The notes under the pieces are model-generated. The model was not told the DNA's origin, made no database searches, and was given only the letters and a program-made list of their open reading frames with translations. The translations under genes were made by a program, and so were the position numbers. A DNA stretch of 52,806 bases from Escherichia virus TH24, in the sequence record MT446398.1, one strand, 5' to 3'. Positions 4,603-11,765 of this stretch are shown piece by piece. The stretch's first letter is position 1; the number at the start of each line of letters is the position of its first letter.

Positions 4603-5622
4603 GTGAATGAAGTAGTTTTGTTAACCGACAAGGCCACTCTGACGACCCGTCGTTTACGCGACTCTGGCGAAATGATTGCAGAATGCACCATTGCTCGTAC
4701 TGGCATTATGCTGTACAAAGCGAAAGAACTTGGTGAGATTGCAAAACATCTAGACCCAGAATCTATTTGCCGTGTTCGCACCAAGCCGGAAGTATTATTT
4801 GATGAGGCAACCATTGAAGGTTGTCGTTCAATTCCGGTTACTATCGGTCATCCAAAAGATGACGTCAATATTAAGAACAACAAAGAACTCCAGAAAGGGT
4901 TCATCGAAGGTCGTCCAATTGCAGACGGCTCTTTCTTGGCTGCATCAATCGTTTTGAATGACGAGCAAGCCATCCGATTAGTTGATTCTGGTGTTGACCA
5001 AATCTCCCTGGGCCATAATGCCGAACTGGCTGTTGCAGAAGATGCTGATGCAGACTTCGACAAAGTTCGTATTATCCCTAACCATGCTGCAATTGTTGTT
5101 CGTGGTCGTGCTCAGACTACTCGCATTGGTGACTCTGGTGAAGAGATTTCCATTGTTGATAAGGCAACCTTTGATGTTGTTGAAGCAGAGCGTGATGCGG
5201 CGCTTGACAAGATTAGCACCCTTGAGCAGAAACTTGCTGATGCAGAAACTGCACGACTATCAGATGAAGCCATTCAGGCTGAGGTAGACAAACGTGTTGT
5301 TGCTCGTACAGCACTTCTCATTGATGTGGCCCGTCTTGGCGACGAGTTCTCCAGTCTTGATTTCTCCGGCAAGTCCGATTCGGAAGTTAAGTTGGCTGTA
5401 GTTAATAAATTGCATGACAAGGATTTCAGCGACAAGAGTGAAGATTATATCTCCGCTCGTTTCGATGCAGCACTTGAAGATTGTGATTCCATTACTTTGG
5501 GCGATGCCCTGAGCCAATCTATGCAATTCACTGCTAAGAAAGATTCAGAAGCTCGTAAGCCTAAAGTTTCTATTTCCGAAGAAGCTAACAAACGTCGTTT
5601 AGAACGCTTCAACTCTTTATAA
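4603..5622 (+). CDS. Scaffolding or prohead maturation protein (putative)
   Basis: Position between portal and capsid genes; C-terminal coiled-coil-like EAERDAALDKISTLEQKLADAE. Start uncertain: GTG 4603 or ATG 4672 (track start 4384 overlaps portal by ~200 nt). Confidence 0.45.
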   Translation: MNEVVLLTDKATLTTRRLRDSGEMIAECTIARTGIMLYKAKELGEIAKHLDPESICRVRTKPEVLFDEATIEGCRSIPVTIGHPKDDVNIKNNKELQKGFIEGRPIADGSFLAASIVLNDEQAIRLVDSGVDQISLGHNAELAVAEDADADFDKVRIIPNHAAIVVRGRAQTTRIGDSGEEISIVDKATFDVVEAERDAALDKISTLEQKLADAETARLSDEAIQAEVDKRVVARTALLIDVARLGDEFSSLDFSGKSDSEVKLAVVNKLHDKDFSDKSEDYISARFDAALEDCDSITLGDALSQSMQFTAKKDSEARKPKVSISEEANKRRLERFNSL

Positions 5623-5631
5623 GGTAAGACA

Positions 5632-6105
5632 ATGCCAAAGCAAGATTGGTCTATTAATACTGGTGCAGCATATGCGGGTGAGCAATATGGCCTGGCTACC
5701 ACTAACTCTCAGCGCCTGACTTTCAATGCTGAAACTGAAATGGCTAACTTTGGTTTAGCTGTTGTTCAGGGTACTGCTTCCAACCAGGTTAAGCCTGGTA
5801 TTGAAGCCGACGGCACTGTTCTGGGCATTACTATGCGCCAGATTAACATCGAATCTGCAACCCGTCCTGGTGACGGCACTGTTGCAATCAAAGCTGGCTG
5901 GCCTCTGGGCGTCATGCTGTCTGGCCCAATCATGGTTAAACTGGTTACTGCAATCACTGACAAGAACATTGGCGTGTCTGCCACTGGTCAATTTGGTGGT
6001 GTTGGTGCTGGCTATACTGCTGCTACCAACCTGACTGCACTTCGCTATCCGGCTGCTGCTGGTGATGTTGTTCCTGTCATGATTAACGTAGTCCCAAAGT
6101 CGTAA
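5632..6105 (+). CDS. Capsid decoration-like structural protein
   Basis: 157 aa, AAGG RBS, host-optimal codon usage suggesting high expression; sits just upstream of the major capsid gene. Confidence 0.5.
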   Translation: MPKQDWSINTGAAYAGEQYGLATTNSQRLTFNAETEMANFGLAVVQGTASNQVKPGIEADGTVLGITMRQINIESATRPGDGTVAIKAGWPLGVMLSGPIMVKLVTAITDKNIGVSATGQFGGVGAGYTAATNLTALRYPAAAGDVVPVMINVVPKS

Positions 6106-6398
6106 CGCCACCTCCAGCACCGACCGTTACTGCGGTAGCGGCGGCTGTGACTGCTGATGCTTCAACTACGGATGCTACCGTAACTGCTGATAAACTGTTT
6201 ACGTTTGCAAACTCTGTTGCTAGCGACTACAACTTCACTGTTGACCCAGCGGTCACTGGAGTCTCTGTGGCGGCTAATGGTACTGTAACTGTTGCAACTG
6301 CGACGATTGGTACTGCGACCTCTGCAACAATCAAAGCAACTCATAAGACTGCATCTGGTGTAACTGCTACTAAAGCAATCACCATTACGCACCCTTAA
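6087..6398 (+). CDS. Frameshift extension (-1 frame) encoding a Pro-rich linker and Ig-like domain
   Basis: The -1 frame opens right after TAA 6084-6086 and overlaps the slippery heptamer C_CCA_AAG (6093-6099) in the last codons of the upstream gene; encodes PPPAP then a Thr/Val/Ala-rich beta-like domain. Confidence 0.45.
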   Translation, partial: RSPKVVTPPPAPTVTAVAAAVTADASTTDATVTADKLFTFANSVASDYNFTVDPAVTGVSVAANGTVTVATATIGTATSATIKATHKTASGVTATKAITITHP

Positions 6399-6406
6399 GT
6401 TTAATT

Positions 6407-6426
6407 GGCGTAGAATAATCTGCGCC
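6407..6426 (+). other. Stem-loop upstream of major capsid gene (terminator or RNA processing site)
   Basis: GGCGTAGA-ataa-TCTGCGCC, 8-bp stem. Confidence 0.3.
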
Positions 6427-6442
6427 TAATGGAATAAATTTA

Positions 6443-7450
6443 ATGCCAAAGATGATTAAACTGGCCGACGGTTCTGAATTTGAACTGAATGATGCCATCA
6501 CCCGTATCCAGGACTCTGGCACCGTTGTTTTGAATGACGACGACGCAGTGTTCTTTCAACGTCAGCTTGAGTTCATTGAAGCTCAAACTTACGACACCCT
6601 GTATCCTGAACTGGAAGCTCGTGCTGCTTTCGGTGTTGATACTACTGGCGGCGCTGGTGTTAACACGCTGACCTACCGTTCATACAACCATGTTGGTAAA
6701 GCTCAGGTAATTAACGCCCGTGCAACCGACCTGCCGAAGTCCAGCATTTCTGGCAAAGAATACAGCGTAACAGTTAAGTCTGTTGGTACTGCATTCGACT
6801 ATGATATTGACGAAGTTGCATCTGCTGCTGTAACCGGTCTGCCGCTGGAAACTCGTAAAGCAAATGCTGCGATTCGTGGTTACGAGCAGTATGTAAACTC
6901 CGCTGCATGGTACGGCGACCAGGCTAACGGCTTCGTTGGCTTCTTCGAAAACCCAGACGTTACCAAAGCAACTGTTGCTCAGGGCGCTGGCAGTTCTACC
7001 AAGTGGAACGAGAAGACTCCGACCGAAGTTATTGCTGACCTGACCACTGCTGTGTCTGCAATGTACGCATCTACTCTGAAAATCATGCGTCCTTCTGAAA
7101 TCTGGATGCCTGTTGAGCATGAGCAGTACATCTTCAACACCGCACGTTCTGAGCAGTCTGACAAGACTATCGGTCAGTTCTTCATTGACAACAACCAGTT
7201 CATCAACTCCCGCGACAAAATCAAGGGTCTGAACGCAATCAAAGGTCACGGCGCTTCTGGTGCAGATTGCTTCGTAGTTGTATGCCGCGAAGCTATGGGC
7301 AACCGCACCTTCCGTCTGCGTGAACCGCTGCCGTTAACTTGGCAACCCGTTCAGCTGCATGGTCTGGTTTATGAAGTACCTGGCCGTGGCCGTTTCGCTG
7401 GCTTCCAGGCAATGTATCCGGCAGCAATCTCCATCAACTCCGGTATTTAA
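6443..7450 (+). CDS. Major capsid protein (putative)
   Basis: 335 aa at the capsid position, strong host-optimal codon usage, flanked by hairpins. Confidence 0.65.
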   Translation: MPKMIKLADGSEFELNDAITRIQDSGTVVLNDDDAVFFQRQLEFIEAQTYDTLYPELEARAAFGVDTTGGAGVNTLTYRSYNHVGKAQVINARATDLPKSSISGKEYSVTVKSVGTAFDYDIDEVASAAVTGLPLETRKANAAIRGYEQYVNSAAWYGDQANGFVGFFENPDVTKATVAQGAGSSTKWNEKTPTEVIADLTTAVSAMYASTLKIMRPSEIWMPVEHEQYIFNTARSEQSDKTIGQFFIDNNQFINSRDKIKGLNAIKGHGASGADCFVVVCREAMGNRTFRLREPLPLTWQPVQLHGLVYEVPGRGRFAGFQAMYPAAISINSGI

Positions 7451-7457
7451 TCCCGAT

Positions 7458-7482
7458 GGCGGGAGAAATCTCGCCTAATTTA
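7458..7482 (+). terminator. Rho-independent terminator after capsid gene
   Basis: GGCGGGA-gaaa-TCTCGCC (GNRA loop) followed by TAATTTA. Confidence 0.5.
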
Positions 7483-7493
7483 AGAGAAATGTA

Positions 7494-7934
7494 ATGCAGC
7501 TTAAGAACAACGAAACTCGCAACCTCCAATTCTTCTTCTACAAGAAGGATAAATCTGGCAAACCTGTGCTGGATTTTGTACATATTCCTGGCGGTGCAAC
7601 TGTTGAAATTGATGATGAAGTGTATAAAGCAATTACCTCTTCTGTCACTGAAGTTGAAGTGATGCGTGAAGAAGTAGTTAAGCTGGACGACTCCAACATC
7701 GGTGCTGACGTTAAGTCTGGCAAAGAAGCACTCGTGATTAAGGAATATTACACCACGGGTAAAACTCGTAAAGTAAACCTGGTCAAAGAAGCTATCAAAG
7801 CTGGCAGTCTATCTATTGTTGAACGCGTGAAAGTTGGTATGCCTGACATTGATAAAGTGTTGGTTGCTAATGGTGTGAACATCAAAGATATGCCGGAAGA
7901 AGCTAAACTGGCCCTCTACGATAAGTTGGCATAA
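7494..7934 (+). CDS. Hypothetical structural protein
   Basis: 146-aa ORF in the head module. Confidence 0.5.
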   Translation: MQLKNNETRNLQFFFYKKDKSGKPVLDFVHIPGGATVEIDDEVYKAITSSVTEVEVMREEVVKLDDSNIGADVKSGKEALVIKEYYTTGKTRKVNLVKEAIKAGSLSIVERVKVGMPDIDKVLVANGVNIKDMPEEAKLALYDKLA

Positions 7935-11130: not shown

Positions 11131-11589
11131 ATGGCTTGTGAACTTCGCCAACGCGAGTTGCAAGCCGACTCTGGTGAGATAGTTTTGGTTGGTACACGAC
11201 AACTCGGTGCCAGCCAAGCCCTTGACCTCCAAGTCGAGCTTGTTCAGAAACTCGGTATTTCGATATTCCCATTCGTTGAGAACAAATATAACTTTGCAGA
11301 CATTATTCATTTGATGCAGCAGGGTGGAACTCATACGGAAGTAACAGAATTAATTAAACGTGTAGTGTGTATGGCGACCATTGATGGTGTCGAAGTTAAT
11401 CCACGCACTATGCAGATGAAGTACAACGGCAATTTAATGCTCATGCACCATGTGTTTGCATTTGTTCTTGAATCGAACTTCCTTGATTTTTTCAAGCAAG
11501 GGCTCGAACTCAACGAACGCAGACAATTGGAGGCGGTGGAAGCATCCAAAATGGCCGAGCAGAAGAATTCGAGTCCGGAAACGATTTAA
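11131..11589 (+). CDS. Tail assembly chaperone (short, unshifted product)
   Basis: 152 aa between tube and tape-measure genes; contains slippery TTTTTTC at 11487-11493. Confidence 0.55.
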   Translation: MACELRQRELQADSGEIVLVGTRQLGASQALDLQVELVQKLGISIFPFVENKYNFADIIHLMQQGGTHTEVTELIKRVVCMATIDGVEVNPRTMQMKYNGNLMLMHHVFAFVLESNFLDFFKQGLELNERRQLEAVEASKMAEQKNSSPETI

Positions 11590-11765
11590 CTCAGAAGTTC
11601 CCGGAAATAAAATACTTCCTGCACCGTCCTGTAATAGAGGACAGTTCTCTCTGTTCTCTTAAAGAACTCTCGGACGGGACCTACTCTATTATGGATTTGT
11701 TAACTTTCCACGCAATACTTGATTTGCGTAATGAACTAAAACCTAAAGAAGAAGACAATGGCTAA
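11487..11765 (+). CDS. Tail assembly chaperone -1 frameshift extension
   Basis: The -1 frame has TGA at 11484-11486, then stays open 93 codons from the T_TTT_TTC heptamer to TAA 11763-11765, spanning the apparent intergenic gap and overlapping the next ATG. Confidence 0.5.
   Translation, partial: FFQARARTQRTQTIGGGGSIQNGRAEEFESGNDLTQKFPEIKYFLHRPVIEDSSLCSLKELSDGTYSIMDLLTFHAILDLRNELKPKEEDNG

Follow-up and report, generated by a model that had tools for sequence, protein, structure and literature searches.

The addition of C-terminal immunoglobulin-like (Ig-like) domains to phage proteins by frameshifting is established for gene 10 of phage T3 (10A/10B), for gp5A/gp5B of Lactobacillus phage A2 and for other phages, and such extensions have been explained by the promiscuous movement of Ig modules between phages (PMC5009743). 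The concept of promiscuous phage Ig-like domains (Fraser/Davidson, cited in PMC5009743), like display of the T4 Hoc type, concerns a C-terminal Ig-like domain on a virion surface protein; such domains move between phages, are sometimes reached only by frameshifting and have a presumed role in weak adhesion. Outside these phage examples, dnaX and IS3/IS911 of E. coli rely on a heptamer of the form X_XXA_AAG, which takes advantage of the fact that E. coli has a single tRNA-Lys (PMC4066793), together with defined stimulators (an upstream Shine-Dalgarno sequence and a downstream hairpin or pseudoknot at 5-9 nucleotides). The current report deals with the 3' end of a capsid cement gene in Escherichia virus TH24 (sequence record MT446398.1; the whole stretch analysed, 52,806 nucleotides, is called the window below), where a programmed -1 frameshift at the slippery heptamer C_CCA_AAG is predicted to fuse a Pro-rich linker and an Ig-like domain to the cement protein. 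On the evidence of sequence comparisons and structural models, we put the probability of this reading at roughly 0.87.

The TH24 locus resembles A2 gp5A/gp5B and T3 10A/10B in that the -1 shift would take place at the 3' end of a head-structural gene and would yield two products with a common capsid-binding body, the longer one with an Ig-like extension. The A2 heptamer, C_CCA_AAA, is closely related to C_CCA_AAG. The carrier of the extension, however, would be an auxiliary cement protein (PF22758) in TH24, whereas it is the major capsid protein in A2 and T3; and unlike the A2 and T3 systems, the one described here is a prediction from sequence and modelled folds, has no detectable downstream stem-loop with canonical spacing in the TH24 lineage, and would use a site that hosts four unrelated modules across one subfamily. 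With dnaX and IS3/IS911 it shares an X_XXA_AAG heptamer and the predicted use of the single host tRNA-Lys, but none of their stimulators was found in TH24. The kind of mechanism is thus already known, and it is its predicted presence in the family Chaseviridae that has gone unannotated until now: no description of this frameshift in these phages was found in the literature or in GenBank records (a search that did not cover the original phiEcoM-GJ1 paper or Fraser et al. 2006), and the papers on phages ST32 and PP101 do not mention it.

The cement gene and its overlapping -1 frame

The cement gene (5632-6105; this gene, the other parts of the locus described below and the major capsid gene lie on the + strand) has a zero-frame product of 157 residues and 16.1 kDa. 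The sequence-only reading had called this product a capsid-associated protein, and the present analysis makes that assignment more specific. Residues 4-152 of the 157 match the Pfam family PF22758 (Phage_cement), which comprises structural cement proteins such as E217 gp24 and Pam3 gp6, with E=7.9e-17 and 62.2 bits against a gathering cut-off of 27, and the product also matches PHROG 563. An AlphaFold (AF2) model (predicted local distance difference test, pLDDT, 79.6) has the Pam3 capsid cement protein 8hdt_G as its best Foldseek match (E 1.3e-6, template modelling score 0.70), followed by the decoration proteins of T1, HFTV1, FCWL1, XM1 and TW1 and the base of the phi29 head fibre. Searches of PDB sequences with the protein and with its profile gave nothing useful, and no Chaseviridae capsid structure was found in a literature search; the RefSeq label of the orthologue in phage GJ1 is "virion structural protein". 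By profile and by model, then, the 157-residue protein is a capsid cement (decoration) protein of the PF22758 family with a Pam3 gp6-like fold. It has in common with E217 gp24 and Pam3 gp6 the sequence family, the fold and the position next to the major capsid gene (here between that gene and a DUF2213 protease/scaffold gene), and its model shares the fold of the beta-tulip decoration proteins (T1, XM1 gp53, TW1 gp56 and the phi29 gp8.5 base). In the phi29 head fibre the same base fold bears an outward C-terminal appendage, whereas a frameshift-added extension turned up in none of the solved PF22758 or beta-tulip members, though no search aimed at one was made.

The cement ORF (open reading frame) ends with GTC CCA AAG TCG TAA (6091-6105). 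The heptamer C_CCA_AAG (6093-6099), which the sequence-only reading had placed within the last codons of the gene, does lie in the zero frame, with one sense codon (TCG) between it and the stop TAA (6103-6105), and it is the sole in-frame X_XXY_YYZ heptamer in the cement gene. Among heptamers measured in E. coli, C_CC.A_AA.G was the most efficient, at 54% with the IS3 pseudoknot (PMC4066793), and C_CCA_AAG is also listed as highly shift-prone in the Atkins review (PMC5009743). The phage genome encodes no tRNA, and so none that could suppress the slip, and the AAG codon would therefore be decoded by the single tRNA-Lys of the host.

The limits of the -1 frame are likewise as first described. 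A TAA at 6084-6086 closes it upstream, after which it is open from 6087 to 6398, reading RSPKVVTPPPAPTVTAVAAAVTADAS...ITITHP and then the stop; the ORF list shows it only as a GTG-initiated ORF of 83 residues (6147-6398). A ribosome that slipped at the heptamer would read VVTPPPAPTVTAVAAAVTADAS...ITITHP, beginning with the Pro-rich linker VVTPPPAPTVTAVAAA (6099-6146), which lies upstream of any possible start codon, and continuing through the Ig-like beta-sandwich domain (6147-6398, including the stop TAA at 6396-6398). The trans-frame product, 5632-6099 joined to 6099-6398, would have 255 residues and a computed mass of 25.6 kDa, in keeping with the ~26 kDa originally expected. Its junction would read ...MINVVPK/VVTPPP..., with a trypsin site falling exactly at the junction Lys, and the predicted tryptic peptide VVTPPPAPTVTAVAAAVTADASTTDATVTADK starts upstream of the GTG at 6147.

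The nature of the extension was examined by modelling it apart from the cement protein, since a joint alignment of the fusion and its homologues misaligned Ig fragments. The sequence-only reading had proposed a Pro-rich linker and a beta-like domain; the AF2 model of the 99-residue extension (pLDDT 87.6, predicted template modelling score 0.76) is an all-beta, Ig-like sandwich. Foldseek matched it to the C-terminal Ig domain of T5 pb6 (5ngj, E 7e-4), the BIG2 domain of phi29 gp8 (6qvk), Rib domains and "bacterial Ig-like domain" proteins of phages, and the model also resembles Ig-like domains borne by phage capsid and tail proteins. In sequence, the extension matches PHROG 13745 ("Ig domain containing protein") with E 1.3e-6, whereas it has no Pfam match at E<=1, including to the Ig families Big_2, I-set, Ig_2/3 and FN3. 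The extension of TH24 thus differs from the Pfam-recognised Ig domains in being identified as an Ig-like beta-sandwich by modelled fold and PHROG 13745 only, and its adhesive role would be a presumed one.

The mechanism that we propose has most ribosomes terminating at the TAA at 6103 to give the 157-residue cement protein, while a fraction of them would slip back by one base at 6093-6099, with tRNA-Pro re-pairing from CCA to CCC and tRNA-Lys from AAG to AAA in a tandem -1 slippage. The slipped ribosomes would read the -1 frame to 6398 and produce the 255-residue, 25.6-kDa form, made up of the cement body, the Pro-rich linker and the Ig-like domain. Because the short and long forms would share the capsid-binding body, the long form might be expected to co-assemble with the short one at a sub-stoichiometric level, and its Ig-like domain would then be exposed on the outside of the head, where it would presumably act as a weak adhesin. 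The motif, the frames and their conservation together, the constraint on linker and domain and the two folds are results of the present analysis, whereas we infer the slippage itself, its efficiency, its product, the incorporation of that product into the virion and its adhesive function.

Conservation of the site and exchange of modules among relatives

By its nucleotide sequence the window belongs to a phiEcoM-GJ1-like myophage of the Chaseviridae, subfamily Cleopatravirinae. This placement follows from the identity of positions 5400-6700 to Escherichia phages TH25, TH37 and MLP1 and Yersinia phage PYps16N (97-98%) and to phiEcoM-GJ1 and ST32 (85-87%). The corresponding junction was gathered from GenBank phages, from IMG/VR and JGI metagenomes and from Logan/ENA contigs. 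In 21 of the distinct loci that remained once duplicates had been removed, the cement gene is followed by a -1 ORF of 93-194 codons; in the other 19 it is not. These 19 comprise Nefertitivirinae and several Cleopatravirinae-like metagenomic phages, in which the cement protein has a short Ala/Pro/Gly/Glu tail.

The heptamer C_CCA_AAR is present in 20/21 of the loci with a -1 ORF and in 0/19 of those without; the variants tallied were C_CCA_AAG (19) and C_CCA_AAA (2, in the loci numbered L031 and L066 in our set). In every relative bearing the motif, 0 or 1 codon separates it from the zero-frame stop, and it is always the sole in-frame slippery heptamer near the 3' end. Across the subfamily, therefore, the heptamer, its frame and its position beside the stop co-occur strictly with the -1 ORF, which bears out the -1 frameshift first proposed from the TH24 sequence. 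The pattern of codon usage within the motif points in the same direction. The codon before CCA is always NNC, even though the residue at that place differs between loci (seven kinds: V, G, I, L, A, S and F); CCA is used in 21/21 cases, against a background of 45% of Pro codons in the same genes, and AAG in 19/21, against a background of 28%. Since the wobble C of a variable codon is held fixed together with CCA and AAR, the conservation at this site is that of frame-specific wobble bases, as would be expected of tRNA re-pairing and not of selection on the protein.

Downstream of the heptamer, constraint is found in the -1 frame. In six GJ1-like sequences, 10/17 of the variable columns of the linker (16 codons, from the heptamer to 6147) fall at third positions of the -1 frame, and the phages of the Y2 group, whose cement proteins are 57-62% identical to that of TH24, keep a linker of the form V(T/V)(T/A)PPPAP(S/T)VTAVAAAV through many synonymous changes. 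Over its 99 codons the extension, read in the -1 frame, has a ratio of nonsynonymous to synonymous substitution rates (dN/dS) of 0.07-0.14, which equals or falls below that of the cement gene (0.11-0.29), and the other two frames are without constraint. The extension of the window is 80% identical in amino acid sequence to those of the Y2-group phages (L013/L020: Y2, Mauresque), compared with the 57-62% of the cement body, a difference that hints at either a recent horizontal exchange of the module or a stronger constraint upon it.

One locus with a -1 ORF departs from the common pattern. Proteus phage Myduc (L014, 2065-2074) has no canonical heptamer, and its cement gene ends with CAG GCA AAG TAA (G_GCA_AAG plus TAA), after which an Ig-like module is encoded in a -1 ORF of 111 codons. 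A_AAG is the best tetramer in E. coli (PMC4066793), and the Myduc sequence suggests slippage of a single tRNA on A_AAG next to the stop.

When the extensions were compared by composition-corrected BLASTP (uncorrected clustering merged all modules), they fell into four unrelated classes across the 21 loci. The class of the TH24 window occurs at 13 loci; an I-set/Ig_3/Ig_2-like class occurs at five (Berlingot, L027, L029, L041 and L066), of which L066 meets the Pfam thresholds for Ig_3 and I-set and L041 that for Ig_2; a third class is shared by Fifi451 and L030; and a fourth is represented by Myduc alone. Three of the classes are found within the single genus Loessnervirus. Modules of all four classes stand in the -1 frame behind the 3' end of the cement gene and are preceded by the heptamer (G_GCA_AAG in Myduc) and a Pro-rich linker. 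Tandem arrangements occur as well: phage flopper (L008, 2968-3549) and the metagenomic locus L026 (2068-2649) carry a pair of window-type modules with a second linker, PPAPTVSAV, between them, and L066 (2071-2655) has two I-set-like domains behind C_CCA_AAA TAA.

A search of 5.8 billion protein clusters with the fused 255-residue sequence yielded 89 homologue clusters, all <=178 residues and none of them an in-frame fusion of cement protein and Ig-like domain, while the extension alone as query matched only 14 short orphan ORFs. This lack of in-frame fusions suggests that the low dosage afforded by frameshifting is itself selected. By a small margin over the opposite view, we favour a broader interpretation in which the heptamer, the stop next to it and the Pro-rich linker, at the 3' end of the cement gene in Cleopatravirinae, would make up a conserved frameshift "docking slot". 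Unrelated Ig-like modules might be swapped into this slot, duplicated or lost, even within one genus, and the whole would form a natural, dosage-limited cassette for capsid display that in this lineage would work without a recognisable RNA stimulator.

At loci lacking an Ig module in this position (L032, L062-L065, L067, L033 and L050), the cement gene ends in variable, low-complexity tails, for example NGGENGGENGGE, TTPPAAGGGE and AAALAAAEAPAK. Such variability is consistent with a solvent-exposed cement C-terminus that tolerates extension.

Competing explanations and the search for a stimulator

The -1 ORF might instead be a separate gene, expressed as a free protein of ~83 residues from the GTG at 6147 or by termination-reinitiation after the cement stop. 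The sequence-only reading had itself named an independent start at this GTG as the alternative that would count against a frameshift. The GTG-initiated ORF does exist, the cement stop is only 42 nucleotides upstream of it, so that coupling is conceivable, and short coding sequences have been annotated here in GenBank (ST32 gp56, Y2 gp67, Faunus gp52 and PYps16N gp59). The relatives nevertheless contradict such a start. The GTG is missing in ST32, Mangalitsa, flopper, L026, Faunus, 4HA13 and phiA050; no ATG occurs near the start of any -1 ORF, the only two that are present lying at codons 41 and 78; and the position of the first GTG or TTG varies between codons 5 and 79, none of the candidate starts having a Shine-Dalgarno sequence. 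The first start-like codon is number 79 of 95 in Fifi451, 56 in L030, 49 in L031 and 50-56 in flopper, 4HA13 and phiA050 (codon 50 of 192 in flopper; codons 49-79 of ORFs of 94-100 codons in the other late-start relatives). Gene callers and annotators have accordingly either settled on differing starts, at least six in all, or called no gene in the interval, and the starts given in GenBank disagree with each other. Moreover, conservation at the level of a -1-frame peptide extends to the 16 codons that precede the GTG, and a separate gene would leave the heptamer unexplained. Independent genes would also be expected in random frames, and the finding of all four unrelated modules in the -1 frame therefore counts against them. 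We regard a separate gene as improbable for these reasons.

Two further explanations seem to us more improbable still, and about equally so. RNA polymerase slippage that left the transcript one base short in a run would create the same -1 fusion, and slippage of this kind at homopolymer runs is known from phages (PMC5009743); but the only runs here are CCC and AAA, against the A/T runs of at least seven that normally support such slippage (PMC5009743), and the conserved item is a frame-specific X_XXY_YYZ, including the wobble C of a variable codon, which is the signature of tRNA re-pairing. Alternatively, the -1 ORF might be a relic that is not expressed, or the heptamer might have arisen by chance from the codons for a conserved Pro-Lys at the C-terminus. 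Pro-Lys is indeed conserved at the amino acid level at the C-terminus of many relatives, and this explanation draws also on the fact that expression has been deduced and not observed. Neither version of it, however, accounts for the constraint on 99 codons (dN/dS 0.07-0.14), which is seen in no frame but -1, for a frame that stays open in 21 distinct loci (with swapped and duplicated modules among them), or for the fixed synonymous positions of the heptamer; and relatives without the extension that have Pro-Lys or Lys near the C-terminus use other codons, such as CTC CCG AAA in L033 and TCC AAA in L062.

Some of the points that weigh against a programmed -1 frameshift in TH24 concern its stimulation and its efficiency. 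Stimulators act at a spacing of 5-9 nucleotides from the heptamer, although a stimulatory element is not obligatory for -1 frameshift sites. The hairpin CCGTTAC-tgcg-GTAGCGG noticed in the sequence-only reading is present (6124-6141): it has 7 base pairs, appears in the minimum free energy fold and starts 24 nucleotides after the heptamer. A role for it as stimulator did not hold up. The hairpin region (61 nucleotides) folds no better than its shuffled versions (z = -1.0, with 30/200 shuffles as good), and the 70 nucleotides downstream of the heptamer give z = -0.25 against shuffles. The consensus fold of 12 relatives is a 5-base-pair stem of -2.9 kcal/mol with one covarying pair, ~26 nucleotides from the heptamer, and the local stem of the GJ1-like relatives is formed by columns displaced by 3 nucleotides. 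Being not significant, shifted in these phages and too distant, the hairpin was rejected as a demonstrated stimulator and is probably not one. No Shine-Dalgarno-like element was seen 10-14 nucleotides upstream of the heptamer; the only candidate, GGTGAT, lies 26 nucleotides upstream, encodes a conserved Gly-Asp and was likewise rejected. Of the features around the heptamer, the zero-frame stop 0-1 codon away is the only one that is conserved throughout. Among the folds of the window and 20 relatives, strong stems starting 3-7 nucleotides downstream of the heptamer were found in L019, L027, L030 and L066 (z -3.2 to -4.9).

In an E. coli reporter, heptamers without stimulators reached at most ~10x a background of ~0.05% (PMC4066793). 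Given these values and the lack of a canonical stimulator in the TH24 lineage, the efficiency of frameshifting may be very low, barring a stimulator of an unrecognised type. To this must be added that protein-level or reporter evidence was not found in a literature search that did not cover the phiEcoM-GJ1 proteomics paper, and that one metagenomic relative (L028, OGVK01000246.1, 2065-2112) keeps C_CCA_AAG, yet has a -1 tail of only 12 codons (PKAVTPPAPAPTICS). Downstream in L028, a separate ORF of ~220 residues with its own ATG and an AGGA sits where the Ig module would be; this locus could represent a decayed slot, the replacement of the module by a free-standing gene or an assembly indel.

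Implications and genome setting

The proposed frameshift would correct the annotation of a whole subfamily, as the ~60 GenBank genomes of Cleopatravirinae either leave a gap of ~330 nucleotides at this position or show a short orphan ORF, labelled "Ig" or hypothetical, whose start has been set arbitrarily. The identification of the cement protein as the likely carrier of a surface Ig-like domain bears on the adhesion of these phages to hosts and mucus, as well as on the immunogenicity of phages that are being tried against E. coli, Yersinia, Erwinia and Pectobacterium. A slot that tolerates four unrelated modules and a tandem duplication at a predicted sub-stoichiometric dosage might be an attractive natural site for engineered capsid display, and the locus offers a test case for the performance of C_CCA_AAG next to a stop without an obvious stimulator.

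The cement gene is part of a head-gene cluster with the order large terminase, small ORF, portal (PF06381), DUF2213 protease/scaffold, 157-residue gene, an interval of 340 nucleotides and major capsid (PF09950). The major capsid gene (6443-7450; Pfam PF09950 Major_capside, E 1.7e-47; PHROG 264) encodes what, from this context, would be the binding partner of the cement protein. A promoter and terminator scan of 5400-7600 gave no promoter-like and no convincing terminator-like site between the two genes. The spacer before the capsid ATG (6398-6442) contains an imperfect inverted repeat, GGCGTAGA...TCTGCGCC (6408-6427), which was not called as a terminator.

Farther along the window, a second likely -1 frameshift site was noticed. 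The heptamer T_TTT_TTC (11487-11493) stands in frame close to the end of a gene for 152 residues (11131-11589), upstream of the tape-measure gene (1225 residues). There the -1 frame begins to be open right at the heptamer (11487-11765) and extends for ~91 codons to a TAA at 11763-11765, so that it overlaps the tape-measure ATG at 11758; this is the classic G/GT arrangement of tail-assembly chaperones.

A database entry with a doubtful host label was also encountered. GenBank PP952070.1, "Staphylococcus phage Pel53" (labelled as a phage of S. hyicus), is 88% identical in the DNA of this region to the enterobacterial Chaseviridae considered here, and its cement protein is 97% identical to its counterpart in them; judged by these identities, the Staphylococcus host given for this entry looks doubtful.

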